Shown here piece by piece: positions 2,686 through 21,500 of a stretch of DNA of 64,000 nt. The DNA is from a virus (lineage: Duplodnaviria; Caudoviricetes): IMG/VR virus record IMGVR_UViG_3300021959_007005; one strand, written 5' to 3'. Numbering within the stretch: position 1 is the stretch's first letter; every line of letters begins with the position of its first letter. The notes below the pieces were generated by a model, which saw only the letters and a program-made list of their open reading frames with translations, was not told where the DNA came from and did not search any database. The translations under genes were made by a program, and so were the position numbers.

Positions 2686-3883
2686 ATTCCATAAACTCAG
2701 GCCATAGTTTTTTCCAACTGTTATTTCTTCTTATATCTAATTTAGATAGAAATTTTAACCCGTTTCTAAAATGCCATAACTCTGGCTCTGCACTATTCAT
2801 ATGTTCTAAGCAAGCATCTACTACTTTTCTTCTTTCATCAGCTATATCTAAATTATCTCTGTACTCTGAAAGTTCTGTAGTATACATATCTTTGATAGGT
2901 TTGGGTAAATTAACAGATGAAAATCGTTTAGGCTCTACTGCCATATTATATGTAAACTGCTGACTTCCCTTAGGCGCACGCCAATGAAATGGGTCCACAT
3001 GCATCTGATCAACAAGATAATCTAAGAATTTTGGTATATTCCTTATGCTTAAATTTGTTATTGTAATTTGTGGAAGTACATGTACTTCTGGCATTTCGTT
3101 TTTTATTGTGTGCCAGTTTTTTACAATCTTCTCCCAATTACTTCCGTAGCGTTGATACTCACCAATGTCGTCGACTGCATCGATACTTGCTCTTATACTA
3201 ACCCATTTAAATTGTTTCCATAGGTCTAGTATATCTATTTTTTTGTATTTTAGTGTTGACAAGTTAGTGTTATACTCAAGTTTTATATTAGACGCCAATC
3301 CTCGGCGCACTACTTCATTTAATAATGTGTAATGATATGGTGTCATCAAAGGCTCACCGCCTGCAAAGTAAATTACTTCTAGTTTGTTATCAACAATTGT
3401 TAAAATGTCTTGCTCTGTATTATTGGATAGTGTAATAAACTTACTGGCACCCTCTTTTACTTGATATTTTAGTGCAGATCCGTCTTCATACCAACTACTA
3501 CTAAGAGCATGCCCACACATTACACAAGCCATATTACACATATTACTACTTCGAATATCTAAATATCTTAATGCAAAGTCAGGTGTTGTATTTTCGGTTA
3601 TTAACTCGCCGTAATCATTATTCAACCGTGTTCTTAGACTGTTCCCATTTCCAAATTTTTCTTGATTATAACAAAACTTACAAGCATCTTGTAATTTACC
3701 ATCGAGAAGATCTTGTCTAAAATTACTCGCAGTATCACTTCGCCAAGCATCTTGCACAGACATTTCATTTGTATTTCCATAGTTAATACTTTGTGCAGTA
3801 CAACAAGGATTTACTTGACCGTCTGGGTGTATGTATAAGTGTACCCAAGGCGCAGCGCAAATTACTCCATTATCTTCTTTCAA
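2666..3883 (-). CDS. Radical SAM protein with N-terminal Twitch/SPASM-like domain
   Basis: CNMACVMC and AGGEP motifs; N-terminal CAAPWVH...DGQVNPCC...CKFC. Confidence 0.92.
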   Translation of the reverse strand: MKEDNGVICAAPWVHLYIHPDGQVNPCCTAQSINYGNTNEMSVQDAWRSDTASNFRQDLLDGKLQDACKFCYNQEKFGNGNSLRTRLNNDYGELITENTTPDFALRYLDIRSSNMCNMACVMCGHALSSSWYEDGSALKYQVKEGASKFITLSNNTEQDILTIVDNKLEVIYFAGGEPLMTPYHYTLLNEVVRRGLASNIKLEYNTNLSTLKYKKIDILDLWKQFKWVSIRASIDAVDDIGEYQRYGSNWEKIVKNWHTIKNEMPEVHVLPQITITNLSIRNIPKFLDYLVDQMHVDPFHWRAPKGSQQFTYNMAVEPKRFSSVNLPKPIKDMYTTELSEYRDNLDIADERRKVVDACLEHMNSAEPELWHFRNGLKFLSKLDIRRNNSWKKLWPEFMEYDIDKN

Positions 3884-5412
3884 ACTTCAACTCCACCTAA
3901 CGCATCCGTTTTTGTATCCCATCCGCCTATTGCTTCGTGTTCGTCATCACCACCTGTATATTCTTCAGTAGTGGCTGGATCACCAGCTCTATCATTTACA
4001 AAGATAGTTTCTTTATTTTCGATTTGTTTACGAGTTGGCACAATTGCATCAATACTTTCAAACCATTCAGCAAATGGACCTGGAAAAGTTTCTACAAAGT
4101 TTTTATTTCTACGCACATCATATTGGGCAAAGAATGCTTTAAAATCGTTGTATAGTTTAGGCATATCTGCTGTGTTTTTGTGAGGAGTTTTTACAATGTC
4201 CAAATAGTCTATAAGTCGCTGTACACTAGCACGTTCTCCATCATTTAACATTTGTTGAGGGCGTTCACTGTTAAACCATAACTGTAGCTTATCTTTATAG
4301 TGACGCTTAATTTCTACTGGAATAATTGCACAACTTTGAAAACTAGGAAAACGTAAAATGTTTAATGTCATAGTAGGCGCACGACGACCATAAGTTTCAC
4401 GCAAGTCTAACATTTCGTCCATAAACTCTGTAATAGTAGTTAAGCACAATGAATTGATTGTCATCATCATATGTAATTTAGATACATTTGATTCTTTAAG
4501 AACACGATGAATACTACTCATCCATAAATCATAATCTAGTCCATCACGTATATATTCTGCTTGTGGCTTTGTCGCTTCCATAGATGTGTAGATTTCAAAG
4601 TTAGGAACATGCCAAGACTTTTCAATTAACTTGTCTAGTACCTTAGGTGTTTGTGGCGACAAGTTACTATTAATAGCAAATCTCATTTGTCTGCCTCTAT
4701 AAGGATTCTGCTCGAACCAATCGAACAATTTCCACGTGCCTTTATGCATAATAGGCTCGCCGCCGGTAATACGAATTTCTTCAAGGTTGTCTGCTAATCC
4801 GTTCTCCCACCATTTATGAAATGCTTGTATGTATGGGTTGTCTTCTTGTTTCTTTGTTGCTGGTTCTGCCCAAGGAGCAGTATCTGAGAAATGACCACGA
4901 CCGTCACTTTGAATATTTTGATAAGCACCATAGTCGTTGATATCTTTAACCCAAGCTGTACTAAATGCTGGATTACAGTATGAACATTTTAAGTTACAAG
5001 CACGATCAAAAGAAATTTCAAGTGTACGCAACATAACATTGTCGTCCCACGGCATCTCTGTACTTTTGGTTATATCTTCGTCTTTGAAAATTTCAGTTTT
5101 AAACACACGATCACTGATGTGATCCTTACCCATGTCTTCAACTTTCCAACAGTATTCACACTCAGCAGGTCGTTCGCCTTTGAGCATCATTTTTCGCATT
5201 TTTTTCTTATGAGATGTATTATGAATAGCAGTATGATCTTTTTCAAGTTCATCCAATGGGATCCAATGTCCTGGTGGGTGATGGCAACTAGTAGTTTGTC
5301 CATGACCTAACCATATAGTAGCATTATACCACTTAGCCGCACAATAACTAGTACTAATACTATCAATCATACGTTCTTTATATGCCTGTAATGATTCGCT
5401 GTGTTTACGCAT
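3880..5412 (-). CDS. Radical SAM protein (KW/SCxHP subfamily)
   Basis: CNLKCSYC and TGGEP motifs; N-terminal CAAKW...TSCHHP...CEYCW. Confidence 0.92.
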   Translation of the reverse strand: MRKHSESLQAYKERMIDSISTSYCAAKWYNATIWLGHGQTTSCHHPPGHWIPLDELEKDHTAIHNTSHKKKMRKMMLKGERPAECEYCWKVEDMGKDHISDRVFKTEIFKDEDITKSTEMPWDDNVMLRTLEISFDRACNLKCSYCNPAFSTAWVKDINDYGAYQNIQSDGRGHFSDTAPWAEPATKKQEDNPYIQAFHKWWENGLADNLEEIRITGGEPIMHKGTWKLFDWFEQNPYRGRQMRFAINSNLSPQTPKVLDKLIEKSWHVPNFEIYTSMEATKPQAEYIRDGLDYDLWMSSIHRVLKESNVSKLHMMMTINSLCLTTITEFMDEMLDLRETYGRRAPTMTLNILRFPSFQSCAIIPVEIKRHYKDKLQLWFNSERPQQMLNDGERASVQRLIDYLDIVKTPHKNTADMPKLYNDFKAFFAQYDVRRNKNFVETFPGPFAEWFESIDAIVPTRKQIENKETIFVNDRAGDPATTEEYTGGDDEHEAIGGWDTKTDALGGVEV

Positions 5413-5454
5413 ATGTTTACTTGTCCTTCATTCTATAATACTTCTATTTAATTT

Positions 5455-6993
5455 CTAAGATGATGTATAACAATCATTCCACCAACCACTAAGCTCTGGA
5501 AATACTTCAATAAAGTTTGTATTTCTTCTATCATCAATTTGATTAAAATATTCCCAAAACTGTTTCTGCCGAAGTTGCAATTCATCTTCACTAATCGATT
5601 CTGCTCCCGACTTAATCCATGCAATGTCCCTTTTAACTTTTTCAATTTCATGATCTAAAAATCCATGAAAAGTTGTATCATAATCTTCTTTAGCTCGATT
5701 ACTTTCCATAAATTCTACAGCATCTTCCATATACTTCATTACCTCAGGTATATAATGTATGTTCTGTGCAGACATCCATGTAGGCTGCCTAAGATAAGGT
5801 ATATCAAAATATATACGTTGTCTCTGATATCTCACAAATGGACCTCGGTGTTTTCCTGTTTCATCAATAGGAGAATCATTTACAATATTTTGATTATCAA
5901 ATCCAAACTCTACTCGAAGATCTAATATCATTTGTAAGTATTGTTGTATTCTCGGAATACTTAGTAAGTTAAATGTGTTAATAAAAGTGACACTAGTTCC
6001 TGTAGTCTCAGATAATATGCGCTTTGTATTATTTAACACGACATCATAATCCATACCAGTACGAATATATTCAGCTTGTTCTCCTACACTATCAAAACTA
6101 ACAAACAAATTAAAATGTTTGATAGCAGGTGCAACAAAAAAGTTATTATCAGTATAAGGATTAATTTTATTTTTATCTTCCCAGATCCTTGTTGTTTCTA
6201 TCTCTTGAAGATGTTCAACAAATTTATCAAAAAGTTTAGGTTGAGGAGGACACATATTACTAGTAATACTAATTTCAATATCTTGATTAGGATTGTCGTT
6301 TACATATTTTAATACTTTGAATGTATTTTTATCCATGAGAGGTTCGCCACCTGTCATACGAAATATCTTCAAATCTTTGTATAGGTCAGGCCACCACTTC
6401 CAAAATGCTTCCACATATGGGTTTTCTTTTGCAGCGCCTTTAATCGGCATCAGTCCTATTTTGTCTAAATGTTCTTTATCATTATGCACAAAGTCTGTTA
6501 AGTGGAATGCTCCATGATCGTCAATCTCTTTTTCCCATTCAGTACTCAAATGCGGACTACAATATGTACACTTGAAGTTACATGCTTGATTAAAATTTAC
6601 CTCTACGTAACGTGGATTAATGTTTTCATCCCAACTGCCTTCCAATACCTCATTCCAGCCGTCAGTTCCTACCCATTCTTCCCCACTTCGATAATGTCTA
6701 TCACTCAGATCCCCTTGATCTTCTAATTTCCAACAGTAACTACATCCTGCTGGCCTTTTACCTTCAAGCATTTCTTTACGCTGTAATGCTTTTTCTTGAG
6801 TATTGTGTAATGCCTTAGGATTATTTTTTAACTCACTAAGCGGTATTTTATGCGTAGGTGGATGATAACAGCTCTGAGTCAGTCCTTGCGGTAAGTGCAG
6901 ACTAACTTGTAGCCACTTAGCCATACACATGCTGGGACTAATATCATTTAGCTTTTCTTTAGTACGTTGTGCATTAGAAAGATAATCTTTCAT
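5455..6993 (-). CDS. Radical SAM protein (KW/SCxHP subfamily)
   Basis: CNFKCTYC and TGGEP motifs; N-terminal CMAKW...SCYHP...CSYCW. Confidence 0.92.
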   Translation of the reverse strand: MKDYLSNAQRTKEKLNDISPSMCMAKWLQVSLHLPQGLTQSCYHPPTHKIPLSELKNNPKALHNTQEKALQRKEMLEGKRPAGCSYCWKLEDQGDLSDRHYRSGEEWVGTDGWNEVLEGSWDENINPRYVEVNFNQACNFKCTYCSPHLSTEWEKEIDDHGAFHLTDFVHNDKEHLDKIGLMPIKGAAKENPYVEAFWKWWPDLYKDLKIFRMTGGEPLMDKNTFKVLKYVNDNPNQDIEISITSNMCPPQPKLFDKFVEHLQEIETTRIWEDKNKINPYTDNNFFVAPAIKHFNLFVSFDSVGEQAEYIRTGMDYDVVLNNTKRILSETTGTSVTFINTFNLLSIPRIQQYLQMILDLRVEFGFDNQNIVNDSPIDETGKHRGPFVRYQRQRIYFDIPYLRQPTWMSAQNIHYIPEVMKYMEDAVEFMESNRAKEDYDTTFHGFLDHEIEKVKRDIAWIKSGAESISEDELQLRQKQFWEYFNQIDDRRNTNFIEVFPELSGWWNDCYTSS

Positions 6994-8175
6994 TTAATGT
7001 CCTTTAATATTTTATTTTTTGGCAGTCTTTCCATACTGCACTTAGTTCAGGGAAAGTTTTAACAAAACTTGTGTTACGTCTGGAATCTAGTTGTTTAAAG
7101 TAATTATAAAATTGAAACTTTCTATTTTTTGCATCGCCTAATTTAATCTTAGAATTTTTAATAATTGAAATGTTTCTTTTTACTTTAGCTATTTCAAACT
7201 GTGTAAACCCTAATCCTTGCTCCGTCTCTTGGTTTTGCTGCATAAACTTAACACAATCGTCTAGAATATCTAGCATATCTGGATAAAATACAGCAAAGTC
7301 TGCATTCATCCAAATTGGTTCTCTGAGTAGTGGAATATCAAACCAAATTCGACATCGATCTTTACTTTCACTAAATTTCATTTTAAGTTCTAGTATATAC
7401 TCTAAAAAATGTTTGAATCCAGTGATACTTAAAAAATTGAAAGTGTTAATAAAAGTTATCTCACTGTTTTTTGTATTACGTAAAAACTTATGTACGTTAT
7501 CTTGAAACACTTGCCAATCTAATCCATTACGTATATATTCCGCTTGTTTTCCCACACTATCTATACTTGCAAAAAGCATAAAGTTTTTGATTCTGGGAAC
7601 GTTTAACATGACTCCCTGATTGCCTTCTTCATCGCTTGGTGGTGCACCTAAGCACTTCCATTCTAGATTTTCATCTGGTTTAAACCAAATAAGTGTATAC
7701 AAAAAATCTCCATGTTCGGTTCTGTTTCTACTGTCAAATTCTAATCCAATATCTTCTAGTGTTAAACGCTGTTTTTTTGGATCAATAGTAGGATCGTCTA
7801 CAGTAGAGTCATCTAATACAATAGCCCTTTGCCAATTCTGCCAATTAATATCTGGATCAGATTCAGCAAAATAAGTAACTTCTTTTAAAATTCCACGATC
7901 AATCCAGTCATTATAAACTTCTTGTGTAATATCATTTTCGATATTTTTAATATTAGTTATAAACTGATCAAAAAGTTTAGGTTGAGGAGGACACATGTTA
8001 CTAGTAATACTAAGCTCAAGTAATTGATTAGGATTCTTGTTTACATAATCTAATACTTTGAATGTATTTTTGTCCATAAGGGGCTCACCGCCTGTCATGC
8101 GAAATACTTTAAGATCACTATATAGGTCAGGCCACCACTTCCAAAATGCTTCCACATATGGGTTTTCTTTTGCAG
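6380..8175. repeat. 55-nt identical direct repeat (6380-6434 and 8121-8175) within two paralogous radical SAM genes
   Basis: tataggtcaggccaccacttccaaaatgcttccacatatgggttttcttttgcag occurs at both positions, 1741 nt apart. Confidence 0.9.
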
Positions 8176-8746
8176 TGCTTTTAATGGGCATTAGTCCTTT
8201 ATCAACAAGTGAATCAATATCATTATGTTTATTATAGCCTATATTAACTGGGCCGAATTTGTCAATCTCTTTTTCCCATTCAGTACTTAGATGAGGACTA
8301 CAGTAGGTACATTTAAAATTACAACTTTGGTTAAAGTTTACTTCCACATAATGAGGATTAATGTTTTCATCCCAACTGCCTTCTAAAACTTTATCAAATC
8401 CAGATTGCGCCCAGCCTTCTCCACTTCGATAATGCCTATCACTCAAATGTCCTTGATCTTCAATCTTCCAGCAATAACTGCATCCCGTGGGTCGTTTTCC
8501 CTCCCACATTTTTTTTCTTTCAAGAACTTTATGTACAGTATTGTGAAGTGCTCGTGGATTATTTTCAAGCTCAGATAATGGGATATTGTGTACAGGAGGA
8601 TGATAACAACTTTGTGTAAGTCCAGCGGGTAAATGTATACTAACTTGTAGCCACTTAGCTAAACAAAAACTGGTACTAACAGAGGACAATTGTTGTTTGA
8701 TTTCATCTTCGCCGTCAAGATTACGTGAAATTGAAAATTTAGCCAT
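7004..8746 (-). CDS. Radical SAM protein (KW/SCxHP subfamily), close paralogue of 5455-6993 with a large insertion
   Basis: CNFKCTYC and TGGEP motifs; N-terminal CLAKW...SCYHP...CSYCW; long stretches identical to the 5455-6993 protein. Confidence 0.92.
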   Translation of the reverse strand: MAKFSISRNLDGEDEIKQQLSSVSTSFCLAKWLQVSIHLPAGLTQSCYHPPVHNIPLSELENNPRALHNTVHKVLERKKMWEGKRPTGCSYCWKIEDQGHLSDRHYRSGEGWAQSGFDKVLEGSWDENINPHYVEVNFNQSCNFKCTYCSPHLSTEWEKEIDKFGPVNIGYNKHNDIDSLVDKGLMPIKSTAKENPYVEAFWKWWPDLYSDLKVFRMTGGEPLMDKNTFKVLDYVNKNPNQLLELSITSNMCPPQPKLFDQFITNIKNIENDITQEVYNDWIDRGILKEVTYFAESDPDINWQNWQRAIVLDDSTVDDPTIDPKKQRLTLEDIGLEFDSRNRTEHGDFLYTLIWFKPDENLEWKCLGAPPSDEEGNQGVMLNVPRIKNFMLFASIDSVGKQAEYIRNGLDWQVFQDNVHKFLRNTKNSEITFINTFNFLSITGFKHFLEYILELKMKFSESKDRCRIWFDIPLLREPIWMNADFAVFYPDMLDILDDCVKFMQQNQETEQGLGFTQFEIAKVKRNISIIKNSKIKLGDAKNRKFQFYNYFKQLDSRRNTSFVKTFPELSAVWKDCQKIKY

Positions 8747-8751
8747 AATGT

Positions 8752-9732
8752 CTATTCAATACTGTCGTTGACTTGTTCTTCACGTACCATTGCACCCAAT
8801 CTATGTGGATTCTTGTATACGGTCTTAAAGAATCTACTGCCAACCCTTCCCATATCTGCAATTTCTAAGTCTAATACTGAACGAAGGTTTTCGCCTATCT
8901 CTATAGTTTTTGCTGTTACCTTGTCAATATCCCATGATACACCAGTGTTTACACACAATTCATTTCCGCCCTCAAACTCTGGGAATAACTCAGTTGTAAA
9001 GTAATTACTAAGCCAATCAAAGTCACGCACATTTTTCCAATCCCATGCATTACGTTGTATATTAGTCATTTGGCATCCAAGTCGTGCACCATACATTGCC
9101 CAAATTCCATTAGTAACGTCTTCGCCAACACTCATCCATACCATCAGTCTCTTATAATTTTCACGATATATGTGTTTAAGTTTTGCAGGATCAACTACAT
9201 TGCCATCTTCTAGTCCCATCTTAACACCTTCACGAAACCCTGCACGCCAAGCCTGTAGTGGGCTACCATTGTTCATTACATCACAGTAAATATTATTCAT
9301 TTGTACATAGTTAATATTCCAACAAAAGTCAACCTGTGCTCTTTTATCACTTGCAGGGGCGGCTTCATGTGTACGCATACGGTTAACAACATCAACGGGC
9401 CAACATTTAATACCGCCGTTACCATATACCAAACCATTTACTGTATTTTTACCTGCCCAACTAATGACGTCATTGCTTTTGATTCGGTCCATATCAACTT
9501 CTACATTGAAAAAATCTTCTTTTACTACATTATCAGCATCAATAGTAATAAATCGTTCAGTGTCACTCATAGCAGCGGCGGCTTTATGTGCGGCGTCACT
9601 TCCCCATACTCCATGACTTCGTTTAGCCCAAGGCGCCTTTTCAAGTAAGTCTGAATAATTTTCATCAGCATTAGGCTCGTCATAGCTAATAAAAATTATA
9701 TCAAATTCAGTAATTGGTACTAAATTTGTCAT
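8752..9732 (-). CDS. Glycosyltransferase family 2-like (GT-A fold) protein
   Basis: N-terminal FDIIFISYDEPNA strand-helix and a DxD motif (ITIDADN). Confidence 0.7.
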   Translation of the reverse strand: MTNLVPITEFDIIFISYDEPNADENYSDLLEKAPWAKRSHGVWGSDAAHKAAAAMSDTERFITIDADNVVKEDFFNVEVDMDRIKSNDVISWAGKNTVNGLVYGNGGIKCWPVDVVNRMRTHEAAPASDKRAQVDFCWNINYVQMNNIYCDVMNNGSPLQAWRAGFREGVKMGLEDGNVVDPAKLKHIYRENYKRLMVWMSVGEDVTNGIWAMYGARLGCQMTNIQRNAWDWKNVRDFDWLSNYFTTELFPEFEGGNELCVNTGVSWDIDKVTAKTIEIGENLRSVLDLEIADMGRVGSRFFKTVYKNPHRLGAMVREEQVNDSIE

Positions 9733-10715
9733 ATTGTAATCTCCTCTTGTGCAAACGTAATATTGCGTATATTGTCTGATACTAATATTTTACATTGATC
9801 TACATTGTCAGTCAAGTTTAAATTTATTTCTTGTTTCCAACCTATTTTTTCAAATGGTATTTTTATTGTTGATAATAAGCTATTTGGATCTTTTTTAGTA
9901 ATATAAAAAGTCAAGTCTCCAAAAATTTTATGTTCCTGTGGATCACTAAAATTACTACGCATAACCCATCCATTAGTTGTATTACTTATTACAAATGTCG
10001 GTACTTGAATTTGTCCAGGTTCATAAATTTTAGCATGATATCGTTTATGACTTTTATTACTTGTATACTCAGCACCAACAAAATATTCCTTAGTTCTAAT
10101 AGAATAACTTTTAAAAATTCTTCTTGTTAAAATTTGTATATCATCTAAACTACATATCGTTCTCAGATGACTCATATCAAAAATACGAAATCCATCATTC
10201 ATAAGATCAATAGGATCAATTTCATATGTAGACATCAGATAGCTTGGGTTCTTTTTACTAATCAGATAAAATTTAATTTTACTATACTGACTTTGCGAAC
10301 TTTGTTTTTTAACGTGTCGAGCACCAGTCATTCTATATACTGTGTCTTGATTAAAATTTACTTCCATTTTCCAATCATTTGTATACAAGATAATGTTAAC
10401 GTCACAATTTTTGTTATGATACTCAGGTATCATACTAAGTTGGTCTTCTTCCTTTTTAATGGTAAGTTTTTTACTTTTCGCCATCAAGACGAATCCATCT
10501 TTACTCTCAGACACAACAAAACGGCGTGGGTCTAATTCCCCAAGCATTATTTTTCTAGCATTGTCGTCATTAGTCTTAAGATAAGAATGCTTGCTAGGTT
10601 TTGGTTTATTTGAAATTTCAACAACCTGACCATCCCATTCTTCATAGTATACAAAGTAATCAGCTGGAGGTTTATCCACTATATATTCACTTAGTGACAG
10701 AAAGTTTGAGGTCAT
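9729..10715 (-). CDS. Hypothetical protein within the radical SAM/GT operon
   Basis: 328-aa ORF overlapping both neighbours; no motif recognised. Confidence 0.75.
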   Translation of the reverse strand: MTSNFLSLSEYIVDKPPADYFVYYEEWDGQVVEISNKPKPSKHSYLKTNDDNARKIMLGELDPRRFVVSESKDGFVLMAKSKKLTIKKEEDQLSMIPEYHNKNCDVNIILYTNDWKMEVNFNQDTVYRMTGARHVKKQSSQSQYSKIKFYLISKKNPSYLMSTYEIDPIDLMNDGFRIFDMSHLRTICSLDDIQILTRRIFKSYSIRTKEYFVGAEYTSNKSHKRYHAKIYEPGQIQVPTFVISNTTNGWVMRSNFSDPQEHKIFGDLTFYITKKDPNSLLSTIKIPFEKIGWKQEINLNLTDNVDQCKILVSDNIRNITFAQEEITI

Positions 10716-11556
10716 CTATTATTTCTTTCGTTATAAATTGCTCGTCACCGTAATGAATAATTCCAGAAGACAATTTATGATTTTCTATAATTATATCACC
10801 ATCATCAGTGTACCAACTGTTAAGCATTTCTGTCCAGTTTTTTGGAATATCAGAGTGCCATAATCCTTGACTACGATTATCAAGATCATAAAAATCATCC
10901 ATCCAAATACCAATGTTATCTTCTTGGTTTAGTAAGTATGTTACAATATTTGTTAAAACATTCTTATTAAAAGTTTCTGGTCTTTTCTCATTGAATATTT
11001 TTGCATACATATCTCGCCAGTTTTGAAAAACTGGATCTGCCATTTTAAACCATTCAATAGCCTCATCAGTTGATTTATCAAAGTATATCAAATGACTATA
11101 ATGTTGTGATAGTTTGTAATGACTTTCAAATTCAAATTTACTGGTTTTCTGTGCAATTCCATTTCTAAAATTTCTAGCAACAATAGGCATAGCTATACTT
11201 TTGTTTTTAAATTGTTGCCAAAAAAGGTCTATATCAACATTTAAAAATAACATATCATTATCAATATACACTGTTTCATTGAAAGGAGAACAATGATACA
11301 TTTGCCATAAATTCGTGCCATGAAATCCATCTTTATATGCTGAATTACCAAATTTTAATTCAGTTATATAATCAAAAACATCATGGTATACGTCCGGTAC
11401 ATCGTCAAGTTTTCCCTGATCGACCACTAAGCATATTTCAGAATTAGGGTCACACTTTTTAATACTACATGCTAATGCATAATTATATTGAATTTGGTCA
11501 GTTTCAGTATTAATTCCCAGTGTTATGAATCCTCTACTCATACTCTTCATCTCCAT
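10687..11556 (-). CDS. GT8-like glycosyltransferase (GT-A fold), putative
   Basis: RGFITLG...YALACSIK start and a DxD motif in SPFNETVYIDNDML. Confidence 0.65.
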   Translation of the reverse strand: MEMKSMSRGFITLGINTETDQIQYNYALACSIKKCDPNSEICLVVDQGKLDDVPDVYHDVFDYITELKFGNSAYKDGFHGTNLWQMYHCSPFNETVYIDNDMLFLNVDIDLFWQQFKNKSIAMPIVARNFRNGIAQKTSKFEFESHYKLSQHYSHLIYFDKSTDEAIEWFKMADPVFQNWRDMYAKIFNEKRPETFNKNVLTNIVTYLLNQEDNIGIWMDDFYDLDNRSQGLWHSDIPKNWTEMLNSWYTDDGDIIIENHKLSSGIIHYGDEQFITKEIIDDLKLSVTK

Positions 11557-12460
11557 TTAATACTTTTAATGAGTGTGCTAACTCTTTAAGAATACCTGGT
11601 GCATGTCGAGCCAATGCACGTTTATTCATAATATGCAGATTTTCATTTTCAGTTCTGACTAATAAATTTTTCCATTGTTCTTGTCGATTATGTGCCAAGA
11701 AAGTCCAATCGTTTATATTTTTAACTCTGATTAAATCATCTTTCTGATCCATATTTACAAGCGGAATATTTTTAAAATCATGTACCAGGTTATTACTATT
11801 AAACCCATTTAGCATATGGGCAGCAATACTTACACAAAAATCTGTTCTAAATAAACTAGGAGGAAACTGATAGAGCAAATGATAATACTCCCAATTTTCT
11901 TTAACATGAGCCCACATATCAAAGAATATTTTACTCTCATCAGATTTATCAAAGTAAACAGCGGTACTCCACCAGTGATGAATGCCAGCTTCATTTAGTT
12001 GTTGCTCATTTAGATATGGAGGTGTAAAATCCAAATACCTTGCAGTACGATGCATACCCAATGATACGTCACTTTCAAACAAATAATTGTAAAAATTATT
12101 TTGTATTATATAATCACTATCAATTAATAGTGTTTTATCAAAAGGAGTAAGATTAAAGATGTCATTTTTATTTTTATTACTAAACTGTGCAGCAAATTCA
12201 GTCCAAGGACTGTCATAATGTTTACGTGGATTGGGATCATGGTCAATTTCATGTGCGATTACATAATCAAAAAACAGAGATTGCATATCCTCAGTCATGC
12301 TCTGTTCCATCCAGGACACCGTGCCAGTATCAGTAATTAATGCGACTTCAATATTTTTCATATTGAGTTTAGCATATCCAGCTGCAATAGATGCAAATTG
12401 TAGATAATCAAGCTGACTATTGTTGTAGGCAATTATTGCAACACCTTGCTTGCTACTCAT
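11534..12460 (-). CDS. GT8-like glycosyltransferase (GT-A fold), putative
   Basis: QGVAIIAYNN start and a DxD motif in TPFDKTLLIDSDY; appears paralogous to 10687-11556 (WENVKENW vs FQNWRDMY region). Confidence 0.65.
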   Translation of the reverse strand: MSSKQGVAIIAYNNSQLDYLQFASIAAGYAKLNMKNIEVALITDTGTVSWMEQSMTEDMQSLFFDYVIAHEIDHDPNPRKHYDSPWTEFAAQFSNKNKNDIFNLTPFDKTLLIDSDYIIQNNFYNYLFESDVSLGMHRTARYLDFTPPYLNEQQLNEAGIHHWWSTAVYFDKSDESKIFFDMWAHVKENWEYYHLLYQFPPSLFRTDFCVSIAAHMLNGFNSNNLVHDFKNIPLVNMDQKDDLIRVKNINDWTFLAHNRQEQWKNLLVRTENENLHIMNKRALARHAPGILKELAHSLKVLNGDEEYE

Positions 12461-12463
12461 TTT

Positions 12464-12811
12464 CTACCAATCCATTAACTTTTTAACACTTCGAGCTCTG
12501 TTAATTTTTTCTATTTGTGTTTTATATTCATTTGTTGCTGCCTGATATGCTTCAAGCAATTCACGACAAAAATCTTCCAAGTCCTCAATCAAAATTGGAT
12601 TATCTTTGATATCTAGTATAACACTTGATTTTTTTCCATGTTGTATTAATGCGTTAACAAATCCAATAGTATGTGAATCAGCCATAAACGTGCCCTTTTC
12701 ATAATGCACAGTTTGTATGACATTCATTCTACTTCTAATTTGTCTTTTTTGGTTGCCTAAGGTTGTTCTATAATTAGCAAATTCTAACGCTTTCTCTAAA
12801 CGTTCGTCCAT
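12464..12811 (-). CDS. Hypothetical phage protein, first gene of the operon
   Basis: 115-aa ORF with an AGGAG ribosome-binding site upstream. Confidence 0.75.
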   Translation of the reverse strand: MDERLEKALEFANYRTTLGNQKRQIRSRMNVIQTVHYEKGTFMADSHTIGFVNALIQHGKKSSVILDIKDNPILIEDLEDFCRELLEAYQAATNEYKTQIEKINRARSVKKLMDW

Positions 12812-12839
12812 ACGGATATTCTCCTGTTAATTAACTACT

Positions 12840-12868
12840 ACTATAACTTATTTAGTAGTAAATGTCAA
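12840..12868 (-). promoter_or_regulatory. Composite promoter: sigma70-type TTGACA-17-TATAGT with a nested late-type CTAAATA
   Basis: Minus strand: -35 at 12863-12868, -10 at 12840-12845, TAAATA box at 12849-12855; lies in the gap upstream of 12811. Confidence 0.65.
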
Positions 12869-12875
12869 CGGAACT

Positions 12876-14027
12876 TTATGGAGTATTATCATCACTTGTG
12901 TTAAAACTATTTGTAACTTGACATGTGGGTACTGGATTAACATCAAATTCTGCATCTTTATATGTAACAATATCTGGCATTAATAAACTAAGATTGGCAG
13001 TTGTAACACCGTCAACATATTGTGCTAAACTAGTATCATCAAGAACTAGTTTAAAGTGAACTTCCTTACCACCATTGGCCCACTTTCCGTAAAGTTTAAA
13101 TTTCATACTTTGGTATGCGCCACCGTATCCACTATATCCACTATATCCTGTTGGACTAATTCCAATACCAGAGTATGCAGACCCGCCTCCGTCTACATAT
13201 ATGTAATCGCCACTAGCTCCCCCATAACCATAACCATAGCCATAACCACTTATTGTTACTCCGCTGCTAGTATAAAGTAGACCTTCATTATGATACCCAG
13301 CATCTGATCCATCACCATAATTTTCGGTTAGGTCATAAAACCCCTTGCCTTCACTAGTACCACCAGTAAATGCAGCACTTTCGAAAACATTATCATATGT
13401 AAAGTTTAACTGACCCATTTCATTTAAAATATCACTCCAGTTATAATAACCAGCAGTTGACCCACCGGTGATATTCATACTAACACGAAGTTGCCCGCCG
13501 CCGTTGAAAAAATATCTAGCATGATTATAACTATTGAATGTCCACTTATGCTCGCCATTTAATTGGTGTTGCCAAACACTGGTCCTATTATATGCTGGAC
13601 CTGTTGGTGTTATAATAAGACTACTAGCATTCGCTGCATCTACTGTTAAATGGTTATTGTTTATTAATAAGGTATTAAACTTTGATTCAACTAAATTTAA
13701 ATCTTCAGCACGTATTAAGCTATACTTAACAACATCAGTACGTCCTGTAGGTACATTAAAAATTAATATAGTATCAGGTAAAATGGTTCTATCTGTACTG
13801 ACATTTGTGCGTTCAACTAAATCTTGCAATCTTTCAGCAGTAATATCAGTACCAATAGTTAATGCATCTTCTATATTTACAGCACCCCAACCGAACTTAT
13901 GTGTTAATGCACGATTAGCATCTGTGACAGATGCAGTACTATATTTGTCACCAAATATCTTGTTAACAACTTCTGCAACGCTGTTGTATTCCGATGCTAA
14001 TACAACGGTATTGGGGCTAGCCACCAT
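12876..14027 (-). CDS. Putative virion structural (tail/baseplate) protein with a Gly/Tyr/Ser-rich segment
   Basis: Located in the tail module; Ser/Thr/Gly/Asn-rich composition; GYGYGYGYGG...GYSGYSGYGG stretch. Confidence 0.6.
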   Translation of the reverse strand: MVASPNTVVLASEYNSVAEVVNKIFGDKYSTASVTDANRALTHKFGWGAVNIEDALTIGTDITAERLQDLVERTNVSTDRTILPDTILIFNVPTGRTDVVKYSLIRAEDLNLVESKFNTLLINNNHLTVDAANASSLIITPTGPAYNRTSVWQHQLNGEHKWTFNSYNHARYFFNGGGQLRVSMNITGGSTAGYYNWSDILNEMGQLNFTYDNVFESAAFTGGTSEGKGFYDLTENYGDGSDAGYHNEGLLYTSSGVTISGYGYGYGYGGASGDYIYVDGGGSAYSGIGISPTGYSGYSGYGGAYQSMKFKLYGKWANGGKEVHFKLVLDDTSLAQYVDGVTTANLSLLMPDIVTYKDAEFDVNPVPTCQVTNSFNTSDDNTP

Positions 14028-14028
14028 A

Positions 14029-14946
14029 TTACTTTACTCCGACTACTACTTCAATTGTACCTGCCTCGTCAGTATCTTTACTTTCAAGAGCTCTACCAAT
14101 TATCCTTCTATAGTCATCTAATTCTAATTGACTTGCACCTCTTGCATGCCCCGTTATATCACTGCTAACTAATCTCTGACCTTTTTTAATCTTCCCAACT
14201 ACCTTACATGGTACTCTGCCAGCTAATGCAATAAATGGATGTGTTGTATCTGTTCCTGCTGAACTATTCATTTCAAATCCTGGTGCTGTACTTACTATTC
14301 CAAACACTTCATTATCTAAATCAAAAATAGTTTGGGTTACTTCTGCATCCCCGCCTAATCTTACAATAGTACCAGCATCATATTCTGCATCTGCTGCATA
14401 ACGCTCTGCAAGGTCAGCATATTCTGCACTTGTGGCAATGCCTCTAAATTTATAATTAACTGTATTATTAAGTTGTATACCAGCTTGTATTACTGGATAC
14501 TGTGTGGTAAGTGCTGTTACATTATCTTCCAAATATTCAGTTGCATGCGGTGTCCATGCTGTTGTGTCATCAGTTATAATACTAACAATTTGTCCATCAA
14601 CAACAGTCTCAATTGTCTTATGATAATTTAATAAGGTATCTTGTCTATTTCTATATTCAATCCGTGTATCTCCAGCCGGAGCACCAATTGAATACCATTT
14701 GCCACTTTCGTATATCATTAGTGTGTTGTTTGCTGTATCATACCAAAGTTGTCCTTCAGTAGGATTACTGGGTGCGGATCCATTAGCAAAATTTTCTAAT
14801 AAATGTAGTAAATCTTCGTTTAATGCTTCGCCAAACGCTGTATAATTTTTACCAATAAGTTTTAAACTGGTACTAGTGTTAACTGTCCCATCGTTTACTA
14901 CTATTTGCGTCTTTGTACTATCTGAAAAGTCTAATGTATATGGCAT
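14029..14946 (-). CDS. Virion fibre-like protein with a C-terminal intramolecular chaperone (peptidase G2-like autocleavage) domain
   Basis: YADLAERY...GIVSTAPG...ALAGRVPCKVVG..KKGQRLVSS pattern; N-terminal NPTEGQLWYDT fibre motif. Confidence 0.7.
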   Translation of the reverse strand: MPYTLDFSDSTKTQIVVNDGTVNTSTSLKLIGKNYTAFGEALNEDLLHLLENFANGSAPSNPTEGQLWYDTANNTLMIYESGKWYSIGAPAGDTRIEYRNRQDTLLNYHKTIETVVDGQIVSIITDDTTAWTPHATEYLEDNVTALTTQYPVIQAGIQLNNTVNYKFRGIATSAEYADLAERYAADAEYDAGTIVRLGGDAEVTQTIFDLDNEVFGIVSTAPGFEMNSSAGTDTTHPFIALAGRVPCKVVGKIKKGQRLVSSDITGHARGASQLELDDYRRIIGRALESKDTDEAGTIEVVVGVK

Positions 14947-14957
14947 GTTTTTTCCTA

Positions 14958-15548
14958 TTATATATCCTGGAAACTAGTTCTTATTCTTAGAGTGTATACT
15001 ACTTGAATTTTTCTATTAGCACTCTTTTGTACTGGATGAAAAACAACATGTGTTAGTAAGTCACCGTTTGCACTATAAATTCCTAGCTCATCGAAAATAT
15101 ATGTTCCTGTCTGTGATGTGGCTGTATCAGTGGCATCTTGTCCTGCTGGTACATTATAGTCTAATGTACACGTTACTTCTACGTCACTATATGTATTATT
15201 GGCAGTATGAGATACTGCACTTTTATTATATGCATCTGCTGCATCTACATTAGCAGTATGTGTAGAATTGTATAACGTTCCTGATGATGAACTAGTATTT
15301 GGCACTTTATATGTTACTGTACCAAGCCCATCTATAGTTGTGCCGCCATTACCAAATCGCATAGTCCCAATTTGATGTGTGCTTGTAGATCCTGCTTTGT
15401 TAGATAACAAGTTTGCTATAGCAATACTCATATTTTCAAAATTAACAGCATTGCGTCTGCGTACTAATACTTCACCTGATACAGGATCCCATATTTTAAT
15501 ATGTCCTTCAATCCCAATCATTGTGTCTTCTCTCTGTGATAAACTCAT
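14958..15548 (-). CDS. Putative baseplate/tail structural protein
   Basis: ORF in the tail module with a FDELGIY...LLTHVVF motif typical of fibre-attachment proteins; TATAAATA upstream. Confidence 0.55.
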   Translation of the reverse strand: MSLSQREDTMIGIEGHIKIWDPVSGEVLVRRRNAVNFENMSIAIANLLSNKAGSTSTHQIGTMRFGNGGTTIDGLGTVTYKVPNTSSSSGTLYNSTHTANVDAADAYNKSAVSHTANNTYSDVEVTCTLDYNVPAGQDATDTATSQTGTYIFDELGIYSANGDLLTHVVFHPVQKSANRKIQVVYTLRIRTSFQDI

Positions 15549-15569
15549 ATCTCTTCTTCCAATTTATAG

Positions 15570-15577
15570 TATTTATA
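15570..15577 (-). promoter_or_regulatory. T4-type late promoter TATAAATA
   Basis: Exact match to the T4 late consensus in the intergenic gap upstream of 15548. Confidence 0.65.
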
Positions 15578-15593
15578 CTTTAAAATACCATGA

Positions 15594-18500
15594 TCATATT
15601 GATCCCGGCCCTGCACTCCTAATGAAGGCATGTTCTGGCGAAATTCCTGTGGCACTTAGGCTTGTACCGCTGTCGTTGTATGCCATACGTAAATTATCAC
15701 CATAATGTGAGAATTTTTCTAGTGTTGGAATACGTGTCGACGGTCCACTGTGTATTATAGTTGAACCGTTAGTGTGTGCTTTTGCACTTGTTCCCAACGT
15801 ACCTCTTATGCAATATAGTAAATTATTATTGTCTATTGCACTATATTCAATTCTTTCGCCATTTATATATACAACTCCAGGATCTGTAGTTGGATTATCA
15901 AATAATGCTAGACTTGTCGCTGGTATTGTGGTGTCTGTTGCTGTTACGCTGCTACTTAATGATGTTTTCTGCGCATCATCAATAACATTGCTAATCTGTA
16001 CATCGTTAGGTTGATATATGCTCATTCTAAATGCTCTACTGTTTCCATCATATGTACTACCACTACTATTTGTTTGTACTGTTATTGAGATATTCTCTGT
16101 GAAATCTGTTGGATATAATTCTTCGCCCCAGCCTTCGTATGCTGCTTGGTCAAAGTTATTTCCATTATACACATATTCTATATCTCCGTCAAGTGTTGTA
16201 AATGTTATAGCGTCAACATTATCAAGCAAATTAGTAAACGTTCCGCCACTTAGTGTTGTGTCACCTTCCCATGATCTTCCACTATGGTCTTCGTACTTCA
16301 TTGTAATAACACTATTTCTAGATTGTTCTGTTGTTTGTATTCCTACTGCTTCAGCATGGGTTGTTGACTCCATACCAGTTCTTAGTTTAGTATGGAAAGG
16401 TTTAATATCATTTATAAAGTCTTCCACAACGCTAACATCATAATTTGCATAGTTTGTTTGTGTTAAACTTAACGGACGGTTGACTTGTAATTTAACGTAT
16501 GTTGTTTTAAAGGCAAAGTCATCTGTTGTATTTTGTGTGATTGCTTCGTTTAACATATCAAACCAAAGTTTATTATATTTTACTTGATGTTTTCCTATAA
16601 ACAATCTTGTTCTTATTAAATCAAACAGCTCACTAATAACAACACTACTATCGCTATCAAACGGTACAATATCAAAGCCAGCAGCGTCAAAACCATGACC
16701 AAATTTACTTTGGTTCCATAATTCCTCGCTCACCTCTATAGTACCTAACTTTTTCCAACACATTGTCCAGCCATTATTGTAAACATACATTTCATTTCTA
16801 TTTTTACTATCAGGACCAGGTACGTTTTTAATTAGCATGTACTGTCCATTTAATGGTGTTACAACACCAACACTATCATAATAATCTTGTATTGAATTAT
16901 ATGTATAAGTTGGTGTAGTATTTTTATTAAATTGGTATGTTATGTTTCCATTACTATCATAATCCGTTCTTGACCAATCAACCCAATTCCAATATTTGTT
17001 TACACTATATGTTACGTTTGCATTAGTGAATGTGTGATCAAATGTATTTTGCCAATTACTTGTATCAGAAACAATTGGTGTTTCTGCAAGTAACTTGTTT
17101 AAGCTATATACAAAATTGTGTCTTGCATCAACTAGGTTCCTATACAAAGATTGTACAGGTCGAATACTTTGCCCATATCTGTTGAACTCATGTAAATTAA
17201 GATCTGGAACCATTTGTCCACGCCACACATTGATATCGTCTGTCTCAGTTTCGGCTGGTAACGTATACTCTTGAATTTCTGCCCAGTATGTCATTGCTGA
17301 ATCTAGACTTGGTTGTTGATTTATGTTATCAGGTATAACTGCCTGTCCAAACATCCTGGCAGGGAAAGTACTTACATAATATTTACCACCGTCAGTTACA
17401 ACATCATTTATTCTATATGTTGTACTTGCATTCCACGCTGTGTAAACCACTCGCTCTTGATAGTTATTAAACCCTGACAAACTGTCACGCATTTTTATAT
17501 GAAGCTGTTCAGGAATAACACTGTCAATATCACCATCACTTAATAATGTCCATTCGTTTAACGGAAGTGCATTACTATCATATATTTGGTTAACTTGTAT
17601 TACTGAGTTTTTATTAACATAATTGTCTACATTGTTTATAAACAATAAATTACTGCTACTCGCTGCACACCAACTTAGATCAAATCCACTAGGGTTCTCC
17701 ATCAATCTTGCTAATTGATAAGTGTTGTAGTTTCTTTGTCCACTATAGCTAGTTTTGTTCTTAACCCAAAAGTAATAAAACGTTTCACTCTCGTTGGATT
17801 TATTATTATAATAGGTTTGTTCTGCCCAATAATACAACTGTTCGCCATCTAGCATTACTGAATATGCTTCTCCGCTTGCTGGTTTACCATCAACTAAGTT
17901 TCCAAAACTAACAAATTGTTCCCACTGTTCAGGTAAAACTGGACTGCGTGTCCATTCATAAATGTCAATACTTGCACCATCAAACAATCTACCCCAATTA
18001 CTTTGTTGATAATCAATACTACCTTGTTCATAGTTTAAATAAATTGCACTGTTAATATCCCACCAACGCTGTCCAACATTGGTTGCTCCCCAACATCTAG
18101 CTTCATCTAATTGACCGTCAATAGTAGTATGATTATATGTTGCAATATCACTACTTACTATGAAATCAATTTCGTTTTTAATAAACCCAGGAATAATACC
18201 TTTTGCTGGATCAAATGTTTCTATAGTAGTAATCGTAGTTTGCGATTTAGCATCATAGATTTTAACATTTTCTATTAGATCATTTCTAGCCTGATTTGGC
18301 ATAGATCTAATTGCTAACCATTCACCATTTGTATGTCCAACTGTATTACTAAACGTGCCAGTCCACTTATATACAGTTGGTGTGCCTGTGTTGTCATCAT
18401 TAACATATGCATAAATGGGAGTTTGTTGATTATTTTGTCTATAGCCACTAAAGTTAAATTTATACGCACCACCTGAATTTGGTGTACCTTTTAGTACCTT

Positions 18501-21500
18501 AGTATTATACTCAGTGTCTAATGTTGCTTTGTCTTTAAATGTAACATTTTTTAGTGGATATACATTTCCTTCTGTAGCTTCCGTTTCAATATATTCATCT
18601 ATATAAAATTTATTTGATGATGACGTATCAACTTTGGTTACTTTATGTATTCCATCAATATTTGGTTTACTATTACTACCACGTATTAATACATAATCAC
18701 CAACTAATACATTGTGTGCTTGTGAATTTGCCAAAATAATTTCTGCATCGTCTGCTTCAGTGATTCCAGCACAAATTCTATGTGCATACATTCCAAAGTC
18801 CATTGTTTGGTAAACGGCATAGCCCCTATTAAAGTTTCCTTGGAAACTATTATCAGCAACCCATATACTAAACAAGTTTGGATCATAAGTCATTTGTTGA
18901 AATACTACATTATTATTTACTATAGCTTCAAATACATTTGATACTGTACTTTGGGTTGCACTATATGTTAGTGCAGTAAGTCCAACTGAACTGTTACTAG
19001 TACCTGCACCAATAATAAGGATAGGGTTTGTACTGGTTATTTTTAGTCTGTTATTACTATTACTTGCTGTAACACCAGTAATTCCTTTACTGTTAATTTT
19101 TCCAATTATTGAAGTAATGTCTAGATTAACGTCAGTTTCAGTTGTTGTTGTACCAGCAAGGATAACACCAGTTGTCAACCCTATTACACTATTTGATGTA
19201 CCACCACCAATAAACAAGGTAGCGGCATTACAGTTTATTTGTAATAAGTTTGTGTTTGAACTATTAATCTGAGCAGTTATACTTGTAATGCTAGCTGCAT
19301 TAATTTGATCAACAACTTGTGCAATTGTTAAATTTGGAGTACTTGATGCAACACTACTAGTTGCTGATGTTGTATCAGCTGGTATACCCACATCACCATT
19401 TGCTGTTCCTGAACCAATAATTAAATCAAACGCAACACCAGGAGTAGATGTTGTCTTAGTTATACGCAATCTATTACTGCTATTTTGTACTGTAATATTT
19501 GCTATACCAATTGATGTAATTCTATTAATAATATCACTCAGTGTGTATACTTTAAATCCACTTGTTGTTTCTGTAGTTACAATTGTGCTTGGCGTGATAA
19601 CACTGCTAGCATTAGCTGAGTTTGTTAAGTATGTTTTAAACCCAAGCATGTATTGACCATTTGCAATCGCAGCCTGTGATCCAGATATATGTGCTGGTGT
19701 AATAATTTGTGTTCCAGCTAATACTGCTGATGCAGTATATGGACTACCATTTAATAAGTTTATGATAGCAACGTCATCTGTTATTAATGCAGCAAGTTGA
19801 CTTTGATAAGCTGGTGCAGCATTGTATTCTACAAGAAGTTGACTAATATTTAATTGTCCAGCACTTGTACAGTATGTGGACATAAAGCTAGCCCAAGCCG
19901 CGGCGCCATTAACTGCTACATATGCACTTCTTAATGCTTCAAGTGCAGCAATTCTATTGGTACTACTATGTGAAATACCAGCAGTACTAAATGCATTACT
20001 ATATGCAACACTGGCAGTAATGTTTGCTGTATTATTTTGTGTTTCATTGAATGGTATTGTGTTACCATCAATAATTAATGTTTTAGCTGCACTACCATTA
20101 ATAGTTGGGTTAGTTGTGGTTCCGTTTATTACAATATCATTAAACGTTGTTGTATTCACCACGTTAGAAAATACAATTGTTTGCGCCGTTGCAGATGTCG
20201 TGCCTAAAATTAAACTACTACCATGAGTAACTACGTTTGAGCTAACTAAATCATTTCCACCGATTTTTTGTATTACGCCTTGTACTGTTGATGTTGCAGT
20301 ACGTGTCAGTGGAATTGATATATTATCTAATATCAGTGTGTTTGATAAATTACTAGCTACATTTGGTAATGTAATACTTCCGATTACTTCAATTGGATCA
20401 TTTGGTGTAGTTAAGCCACTACTGCCATCAATGTCCACCATTTGCCACGTTTTGCCTTGGTGTAAAATTTTGTCATTAAATTTGTAGCTTGTTCTATTAT
20501 TCCAAGCATAAATGTCTTGCCATTCTCCTGAAAAATTATAATCAGTTTTTGTTTCCAAAGGAAACGTTGCAAGATCATCTCTGTTTATTACTCTGTAATC
20601 TACTTCACTTGTTAGCGGTAATCCTGCAGTTATAAAGTCATTAGCATAAGTTTCTTCATAACTAATAGTATCACCAGATTCTAAAATTCTTGGAAGTCTA
20701 GTTGTAAAGTTGTCTCCTGGAGTACCAGTAACAAGTAACGGACTATTATGATCAACATCAATAACAACATCAGTTAAAACATCATTAACTTCTTCTGCGC
20801 TAAATCTAACTGCCTGTGGGCTAGTAGTTAATAAGTCTGGTGTTATTTGAAATTCTATAGTATCTCTACTACGTGTATCACCATAATCAGCTGTTCTGAT
20901 TGCCCACTCTTCATGTATATTTGCCGTTGCATCACCATCAAATAATGATTTATTTTTCATAAACGCATCTAATGCAAGTCGTGTACCTCTATATTTTCGA
21001 GTACCTTTTATGAATTCATACAATGTGTCATCATCTATGTCAAGTTTAGAACTCCATTCTGGTTTGTTATATCCAACATTAAATCTTGCAACATCAACAA
21101 TTTGTTGATTATTGATGGTGTTCCCTCTTCCATAATACTGGTCCATTTCTCTTGCACTAGTATCTAAGTTATCCACAATAGTATTATCAGTTATAATATA
21201 GCCTGGTGCATATAGCTTACCATTCCAGTTCTTAGTTTTACTACCACGCCATTTAATTCTTGTATGTCTTTGCCCAAGTGCTGGATTATAGATAACATCA
21301 TCAAAATTTGTACTATTATCAAATACAATCGCATGTTCAAGTTCAACTTTGTAAAGTCTAATACCCGCAATAAATGTTTTATCAGGATCTTTAACTGATA
21401 TTGTTGTTATTGCATCTTCACCTTTATCAAATTCACGAACTATATAAATTTCACTACTGCTGATTTGTTTACCATATGGATCTATTAAATTATAAACCCC

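Follow-up and report, generated by a model that had tools for sequence, protein, structure and literature searches.

A conserved glycosyltransferase cassette behind the tail genes of giant phages is a candidate virion-glycosylation system

Five genes that lie behind the tail module of a bacterial virus, E-D-C-B-A, appear to be a conserved phage-encoded protein-glycosylation unit. On balance, we lean toward the view that this cassette glycosylates a virion protein. The cassette was studied in a window of 64,000 nt, the whole stretch of DNA analyzed, from a virus genome that is approximately 55% complete. The cassette is carried by a large set of giant viruses of bacteria, most of them uncultured, and is a marker of an aquatic clade of very large size.

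The five minus-strand open reading frames were confirmed at the coordinates first called (Table 1). Tight coupling of the genes to one another and to the start of a radical SAM array, claimed in a preliminary description, was upheld: E and D are separated by 3 nt, D and C overlap by 23 nt and C and B by 29 nt (counted from first start codons), B and A overlap by 4 nt, and A ends 5 nt from the radical SAM gene at 7004-8746. The cassette had also been said to follow fiber and baseplate genes directly. The neighbors are indeed orthologs of virion proteins, but a promoter-bearing gap of 64 nt separates them from the cassette, and the two do not directly adjoin.

Table 1. Positions of the cassette and its surroundings in the window
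Feature	Positions	Strand	Remarks
Radical SAM genes after A	126-8746	-	six N-twitch genes; array runs past window start; accessory
A	8752-9732	-	326 aa
B	9729-10715	-	328 aa
C	10687-11556	-	289 aa
D	11534-12460	-	308 aa
E	12464-12811	-	115 aa
Hybrid cassette promoter	12840-12868	-	TTGACA-17-TATAGT, TAAATA late-type box within spacer
F	12876-14027	-	virion protein; candidate acceptor, Gly/Tyr/Ser-rich loop at about residues 264-305
Baseplate/tail block	14029-30735	-	G, H, 3745-aa protein, wedge genes; context
G	14029-14946	-	PHROG structural matches
H	14958-15548	-	within baseplate/tail block

D and A are predicted to be GT-A glycosyltransferases. None of the five proteins matched Pfam, PHROG or NCBIfam, and PDB sequence searches with A to E returned no match. 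The PF01501 (GT8) profile matched neither D nor any of 95 C members, and the PF00535 (GT2) profile matched none of 93 A members, with sub-threshold matches (E 0.001-0.02) in three distant A relatives. The AlphaFold model of D (pLDDT 89.6) best matched GlyE (Z 15.3, rmsd 4.3, 233 aligned), followed by glycogenin (Z 15.0), the Skp1 galactosyltransferase (14.7), UGGT (14.2) and LgtC (13.9), the best GT8 and GT24 matches lying within about 1 Z of each other. Residues D114, D116, R205, D207, H276 and K280 are invariant among 89 sequences, and the DxD motif (D114/D116) is kept in 100% of the family. Thus modeled, D would be a GT8/GT24-like enzyme with intact active-site residues. The model of A (pLDDT 89.5) best matched B4GALNT1 (Z 10.5, rmsd 3.1, 141 aligned), with further matches to STIV A197 (Z 9.2), SunS (Z 9.1), SpsA (Z 8.6) and TarP (E 5e-4). 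Its predicted architecture is a GT2-like domain (residues 4-155) and a helical C-terminal part; D65, D67, E19, H49, R167 and E168 are invariant, and the DxD (D65/D67) is conserved at 100%. The top structural rows for D and A are GT-A enzymes or related nucleotidyltransferases, and the profiles of the two families could not be aligned with each other (probability 1.3%).

C appears to be a divergent paralog of D, to judge from profile comparison (hhalign, 99.8%, E 2e-29). Its DxD is D99/D101, and conservation of 95% at D99, 77% at D101 and 79% at H268 suggests that the active-site motif is partly decayed across the family. Single C members gave weak matches to PF03407 and PF11051. The original call of one GT2-like and two GT8-like proteins agrees with the GT-A fold models of A and D and the profile match of C to D.

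B and E may be noncatalytic helpers. B is the long form of a family of about 200 aa with a partial internal repeat, the short-form HMM matching residues 17-209 (E 4e-25) and, weakly, 262-308. The family is always placed between C and A, and B had no match in Pfam, PHROG or Atlas. E is a possible adaptor or chaperone. D and C accompany it in 78/79 E-anchored loci, and the remaining locus ends at a contig edge. The nearest named Atlas family of E is DUF4376 (0.89), which would suit a tail-fiber assembly chaperone but is a lead only: it was not among the families listed by Pfam searches of 82 E members. Prediction of an E-F complex scored 0.00, which counts neither for nor against an interaction.

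Relatives of A may point to a protein acceptor. The A family comprises at least 8,000 clusters and includes A-A'-methyltransferase-like, GT-B::A and A-Sel1 fusions. The first of these ties A, its paralog A' and the methyltransferase-like gene together; A' and its methyltransferase-like partner lie approximately 28 kb downstream in this genome and are adjacent in others. The GT-B::A fusions sit in bacterial peptide-export clusters. In all eight contigs examined, the fusion adjoins a short double-glycine-type open reading frame, six of the eight have a called C39-peptidase ABC exporter, and each holds a precursor with Tyr among the first six core residues, mostly as Tyr-Gly. The fused A domains retain the DxD. 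One bacterial cluster combines a single precursor with two GT fusions and one radical SAM. This kinship, traced by sequence, may lend indirect support to a protein acceptor. The peptide clusters are homologous and are not independent evidence, and in the A tree they branch separately. They also carry other GT domains, any of which might do the priming, and the Tyr-Gly of the precursors may serve cleavage instead. As a further point against a protein acceptor, members of the A family occur in chromosomal GT2 clusters of Bdellovibrionales and in Rhodobacteraceae with no obvious peptide nearby. Literature searches did not find A-family peptide clusters.

How might the cassette act? A, with A' and the methyltransferase-like partner, most likely would form the sugar-to-protein link, and D, perhaps with C, would lengthen the glycan. 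The product would then be diversified by the variable genes that follow (N-twitch radical SAMs, from 0 to about 15 in number, a carbamoyltransferase and sugar-nucleotide enzymes). Candidate sugar-supply genes in the genome include PMM, NeuB and members of the UDP-glucose dehydrogenase and CMP-sugar synthetase families. Of three sugar-related genes reported earlier elsewhere in the window, the phosphomannomutase-like gene (41587-42294) matched PF03332 and the cytidylyltransferase-like gene (36960-37541) matched PF01467 above cut-off; the SGNH hydrolase (42270-43142) has the GDS and DxxH motifs, the sole basis for its assignment, and no Pfam match.

The acceptor would most likely be a tail or baseplate protein, and the first candidate is the Tyr loop of F. 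F is the ortholog of PA5oct EST35_0123, which is marked ESI-MS/MS, and the block upstream of it holds orthologs of PA5oct virion proteins 124-126 and 128. Y305 lies within a hypervariable loop and is present in 96% of 53 diverse members. In the marine clade the loop has grown into Gly-Tyr repeats, and F holds 5 of the genome's 16 GYG motifs. RsoM2USA, a cultured Ralstonia phage, and the complete genome G003 each have one F paralog with the loop Tyr, the cassette-adjacent F of RsoM2USA lacking it. The two F paralogs of RsoM2USA are ORF355 and the gene at 288,923-289,768. PA5oct, the sole cassette-free control, has a gap at the Y305 column. We regard the loop as a tentative choice of glycosylation site. 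Y305 may be structural. Repeat length, long B and many radical SAMs belong to one clade and were not counted as independent evidence. A fuller version, in which a RiPP-like virion pathway has A O-glycosylate the tyrosines of the Gly-Tyr loop, and the glycan is lengthened by the GT8-like enzymes and remodeled by as many as 15 N-twitch radical SAMs, is possible but rather doubtful.

The cassette promoter matches a sigma70-like consensus 11/12, by consensus match alone, and is the best such site within positions 1-16000. Among 114 distinct regions upstream of E, compared with shuffles, 91 have a sigma70-like site (shuffle mean 1.9, maximum 6), 73 have a TAAATA box (shuffle mean 18, maximum 28), and 55 have the box nested inside the site. 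Two further genes, one of them the portal-like gene at 47088, have this nested design upstream, and a TAAATA box lies upstream of H. An early-plus-late promoter of this kind would provide enzymes before and during assembly. Since a sigma70 promoter of its own serves the cassette, the nearby tail genes need not mean a common function. Metatranscriptome contigs from two studies cover the region, with DNA carry-over possible and neither strand nor start given by the contigs.

Early expression could instead serve to modify a host surface glycan or protein for receptor masking, superinfection exclusion or anti-defense. The strong, conserved sigma70 promoter would fit, as would the A' promoter, a 12/12 sigma70 site without a late box. 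In Bdellovibrionales chromosomes, N-twitch enzymes are found among GT2 genes together with A, A' and the methyltransferase-like gene. GT8 and TarP-like folds often act on lipopolysaccharide or teichoic acid, and the genome encodes heptose and nonulosonate-type enzymes. We nevertheless consider a host-surface target unlikely. A virion gene, C and D are upstream of A in 104/104 informative loci, the late box is nested in the promoter, and no flippase, polymerase or membrane GT was seen within the cassette. Moreover, the cassette is kept in phages that differ widely in habitat and, presumably, in host.

The radical SAM enzymes are accessory candidates for tailoring. Five downstream genes (1291-8746) exceed the NF033640 cut-off, scoring 302-344 bits against 170, as does the sixth in a separate search. 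Enzymes above cut-off number approximately 15 in this genome, two in RsoM2USA, one in G004 and none in G003. The linkage of GTs with radical SAMs proposed at the outset stands for 69/84 loci and fails for the other 15, which have none within 5 kb, as it does for G003, where the cassette is present without an NF033640 match. Those loci and G003 rule out an obligate unit. Literature searches on radical SAMs with GTs in jumbo phages found no report.

If the acceptor is a protein, the target of the radical SAMs might be the peptide, through Tyr/Gly cross-links or epimerization of the Gly-Tyr loop, whether or not they also tailor a sugar. Peptide cross-linking is frequent among SPASM/twitch enzymes (PMC11002830), two bacterial precursor-peptide clusters hold radical SAMs of the N-twitch type of the phage, and the radical-SAM-rich clade carries long Gly-Tyr repeats. 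That last association is a single clade and not independent, however, no radical SAM was called in 6/8 peptide contigs, and approximately 15 divergent paralogs among sugar enzymes suit a varied glycan at least equally. Action on the peptide seems quite unlikely.

Glycosylation of phage DNA, as base hypermodification against nucleases, is improbable. DNA-modifying GTs of phages include GT-A folds, TarP-like among them, with TarP/GT8 structural matches, and sometimes lie near structural genes (10.1101/2023.12.21.572611). The early promoter would suit such a role, and in RsoM2USA a divergent thymidylate-synthase-family gene occurs as a second copy, far from the cassette. In the complete genomes G003 and G004, however, which carry the cassette, the only ThyA is canonical and a divergent copy is lacking. 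Next to the cassette, neither a hydroxymethylase nor an oxygenase gene was seen, and the A family is linked to peptides. FolE and QueE, encoded in another region of this genome, may represent a different DNA-modification route. A Tet_JBP search, run without a positive control, found no match anywhere. Finally, a role for D, C, B and E as parts of the virion or as factors in its assembly, with GT folds serving for carbohydrate binding or as scaffold, is very improbable: E, D, C and B are found only in a phage-like context and the C motif is partly decayed, but the catalytic residues of D and A are invariant, and PA5oct, GAP32, XacN1, Phosso and Vibrio phage 2.275.O have related tails with no detectable A or D.

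Why a phage would glycosylate its virion is a matter for speculation, and shielding from defenses or grazers is one such purpose. The F loop and the short bacterial precursors are candidate substrates for two orphan families, the A-type GTs and the NF033640 radical SAMs. Were the RiPP-like pathway true, the two families would mark out a class of bacterial Tyr-glycopeptides that has not been described before.

Among tailed phages, the demonstrated cases of virion glycosylation come mostly from actinophages. Capsid O-glycosylation in Che8 is the precedent (Freeman et al. 2023, cited by PMC13445384 and PMC12619734), and the latter gives four core GT groups for moraphages. Che8-type phages resemble the cassette in having several phage-encoded GTs (here D, C, A and A') and a proposed virion O-glycan, and differ in that siphophage capsid and tail-tube subunits are shown targets, whereas here the candidate target is in a myovirus tail block. 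Actinophages gave no tblastn match to the cassette, which adds helper genes and radical SAMs. Virus-encoded GT-A enzymes are likewise known from PBCV-1 (A064R GT domain, PDB 2p6w; D match, Z 11.6) and STIV (A197, matched by A). Those viruses also have GT-methyltransferase fusions, but they infect eukaryotes or archaea, and the likeness is one of fold alone (8-14% identity). Of the CAZy GT8/GT24 enzymes (GlyE, glycogenin, Skp1 galactosyltransferase, LgtC and UGGT), D keeps the DxD and C-terminal His/Lys, at a likeness below Pfam detection. Among the GT2 glycocin enzymes SunS and ThuS, A resembles SunS, which modifies Cys, and A-family members, as in glyco-RiPPs, lie beside double-glycine precursors and C39 exporters. 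Cacaoidin and S-layers offer precedents for Tyr O-glycosylation (10.1101/2020.05.20.105809). The gene order recurs in RsoM2USA (MG752970), the sole match for the cassette in a tblastn search of 50,697 phage records, which remote homology could escape. Its ORFs 347-355, all annotated hypothetical, run F-E-D-C-B-A-radical SAM-A'-methyltransferase-like as here, with 29-43% identity for A, C and D, a short B and two N-twitch enzymes only. The products of these ORFs were not among 10 identified virion bands (PMC8504454). RsoM2USA is nevertheless a cultured carrier with a minimal cassette, which makes the question directly testable.

The virus record around the window spans 198 kb at 55% completeness, and marine as well as estuarine runs contained the virus. 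Capsid protein identity is 71% to Pseudomonas phage PA5oct and 66 to 70% to the GAP32/Rak2-like jumbo myoviruses. The five cassette genes (E, D, C, B, and A) and the radical SAM gene that follows A overlap or abut throughout. A preliminary description of a five-gene glycosyltransferase/radical SAM layout beside tail genes is borne out by ORF coordinates, GT-A folds, and matches to the N-twitch radical SAM family NF033640. Family searches returned no match for any of the five proteins. The predicted model of D (pLDDT 89.6) matched GT8/GT24 enzymes (GlyE, Z 15.3; glycogenin, 15.0; Skp1 galactosyltransferase, 14.7; UGGT, 14.2), and D114, D116, H276, and K280 are invariant in its family. C, which aligns to D by profile at 99.8%, is its paralogue, and the motif is less well conserved in C. 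For A (model pLDDT 89.5), residues 4 to 155 form a GT-A domain nearest GT2-like enzymes (B4GALNT1, Z 10.5; STIV A197, 9.2; SunS, 9.1; TarP, E 5e-4), and D65 and D67 are invariant in the A family. The models and the C-D match uphold the initial assignment of one GT2-like and two GT8-like proteins with DxD motifs.

Positions of features in the window
Feature	Position	Strand	Remark
E	12464-12811	minus	ORF
D	11534-12460	minus	ORF
C	10687-11556	minus	ORF
B	9729-10715	minus	ORF
A	8752-9732	minus	ORF
First radical SAM gene	7004-8746		directly after A
Second radical SAM gene	5455-6993		recent paralogue of the first (E 3e-183)
Third radical SAM gene	3880-5412		with the second, one open frame (3880-6993, 1037 codons) apart from a stop
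Portal-like gene	47088-48773		
Peptidase-like ORF	54197-56245		among fibre-like genes; by eye, translation only
Heme-oxygenase-like ORF	56264-56788		among fibre-like genes; by eye, translation only

Synteny, a complete genome, natural fusions, and tail relatives in which A and D found no match indicate that the glycosyltransferase cassette is the core unit, to which N-twitch radical SAMs are added variably. Of 115 distinct A loci on viral contigs, 104 extend far enough upstream to be informative; C, D, and a virion gene (F, just upstream of E, or the baseplate gene G) are present in every one of these, and E in 103. Because D or A served as the query for many loci, the presence of D is partly selected. 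The expected co-occurrence with radical SAMs held in 69 of 84 loci, where an N-twitch enzyme lies within 5 kb downstream of A, and failed in 15 and in G003, a complete 364.6-kb genome with terminal repeats, which carries E-D-C-B-A and a methyltransferase-like gene, has no NF033640 match, and encodes its four other radical SAMs far from the cassette. RsoM2USA, a Ralstonia phage and the only cultured carrier found, has the order F-E-D-C-B-A-radical SAM-A'-methyltransferase-like, A' being a paralogue of A, and natural A-A'-methyltransferase-like fusions exist. The window's genome has about 15 N-twitch enzymes, and an expanded set of genes, radical SAMs among them, separates A from A' and the methyltransferase-like gene, ~28 kb downstream (G000:C1:130103-131912). 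Moreover, neither A nor D found a match in PA5oct, GAP32, XacN1, Phosso, or Vibrio phage 2.275.O, all of which have the baseplate block; therefore, the cassette is dispensable for building this type of tail.

Related arrangements were also seen. The expanded region encodes a B12-dependent radical SAM, UDP-glucose dehydrogenase and ribulose-phosphate epimerase family proteins, and a nucleotidyltransferase-like protein, plus a second methyltransferase-like paralogue (L166:9171-14992 and L166:12279-13001). In Sinorhizobium phage Phosso, the same position behind the G orthologue is taken by a distinct radical SAM cluster, without A or D (L170:11626-18558), and in the XacN1 baseplate block an annotated GT9 gene directly precedes the orthologue of tail gene H (L171:2283-2951). 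Six contigs filed in bacterial MAGs (L176, L177, L178, L183, L207, and L213) carry the full block G, F, E, D, C, B, A and are probably phage contigs in bacterial bins.

Promoter motifs suggest that the cassette is its own transcription unit, expressed early and then again late. The 64-nt gap between F and E contains TTGACA-17-TATAGT with TAAATA inside the spacer, and upstream of the portal-like gene TAAATA is likewise nested in a perfect sigma70 site. In this genome, TAAATA also lies ahead of the first gene of most structural operons (H, baseplate wedge, portal-like, sheath, and tube) and ahead of several radical SAM and sugar genes. Upstream of the cassette, sigma70-like sites occur in 91 of 114 relatives versus 1.9 in shuffles, and TAAATA occurs in 73 versus 18. 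Such timing fits enzymes required during assembly. An early role directed at the host would be compatible with it as well, and we consider a host surface or host protein an unlikely target.

Bacterial relatives of A bear on the acceptor. All 8 contigs examined for GT-B fusions of distant A relatives have short double-glycine-type ORFs next to the fusion, and six have a C39-peptidase exporter. The core of eight precursors opens directly behind the glycines with Tyr or Gly-Tyr, in most cases as Tyr-Gly, and no contig lacks a precursor with Tyr within the first six core residues. This line is tempered by the common descent of the clusters, which form a branch of the A tree separate from phage A and also contain other glycosyltransferases; in addition, chromosomes of Bdellovibrionales and Rhodobacteraceae carry A where no peptide is evident. 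Two clusters contain radical SAMs matching a profile of the phage's N-twitch enzymes (E 1e-74 to 1e-89). That radical SAMs act on the peptide itself seems rather improbable.

Seven clusters (L173, L310, L312, L313, L341, L343, and L344) combine GT-B::A fusions, a C39 ABC exporter, a conserved ~230-aa gene (weak GT64 match in L344), Tyr-Gly double-glycine precursors, and sometimes N-twitch radical SAMs, and are apparently undescribed bacterial RiPP-like clusters. In Bdellovibrionales (L209, L211, L215, and L217, about 5400-11800), A and GT2 genes lie between dnaB and rplI, often with an N-twitch radical SAM, and Bacteriovoracaceae loci L188, L198, and L200 have A, a methyltransferase-like gene, and several radical SAMs. 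Gene exchange between these bacteria and this phage clade is possible.

F is an orthologue of a PA5oct virion protein verified by MS. Its hypervariable loop ends in Y305, a Tyr kept in 96% of 53 diverse members, and is expanded into Gly-Tyr repeats in the marine clade. F of cassette-free PA5oct has a gap at that column, one genome being the whole control set, and so has the cassette-adjacent F of RsoM2USA, in which a second F paralogue has the Tyr. Together, the peptide-cluster relatives and the conserved loop argue for a protein acceptor. On balance, we lean toward a virion protein as acceptor of the cassette's sugar; the Tyr loop of F in particular is a tentative, somewhat doubtful site. DNA is an improbable target of the glycosyltransferases, as the complete genomes G003 and G004 encode a canonical ThyA and no other, and a structural role for the cassette proteins is very improbable. 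Separately, FolE and QueE genes in the replication region (L164:2011-6837 and L165:12691-13587; unassigned neighbors of 503, 353, and 148 aa) possibly serve 7-deazaguanine modification of DNA or tRNA.

In the most likely mechanism, A or A' would attach a sugar to a virion protein and D, together with C, would extend the glycan, with B and E assisting. The product may be diversified by the methyltransferase-like protein, a carbamoyltransferase, and radical SAMs, and phosphomannomutase, UDP-glucose dehydrogenase, NeuB, and CMP-sugar synthetase family genes would supply sugars. Sugars are the substrates of twitch-type enzymes such as BtrN and NeoN, whose twitch domain is C terminal, unlike that of the N-twitch phage enzymes, and which are not known as close relatives of the latter.

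A literature search found no paper on this cassette. It is widespread, provides two orphan enzyme families with candidate substrates, and is testable in a cultured carrier phage. tblastn gave no sequence match in actinobacteriophages such as Che8. As a putative virion glycosylation system, the cassette would work like those of Che8 and the chloroviruses.
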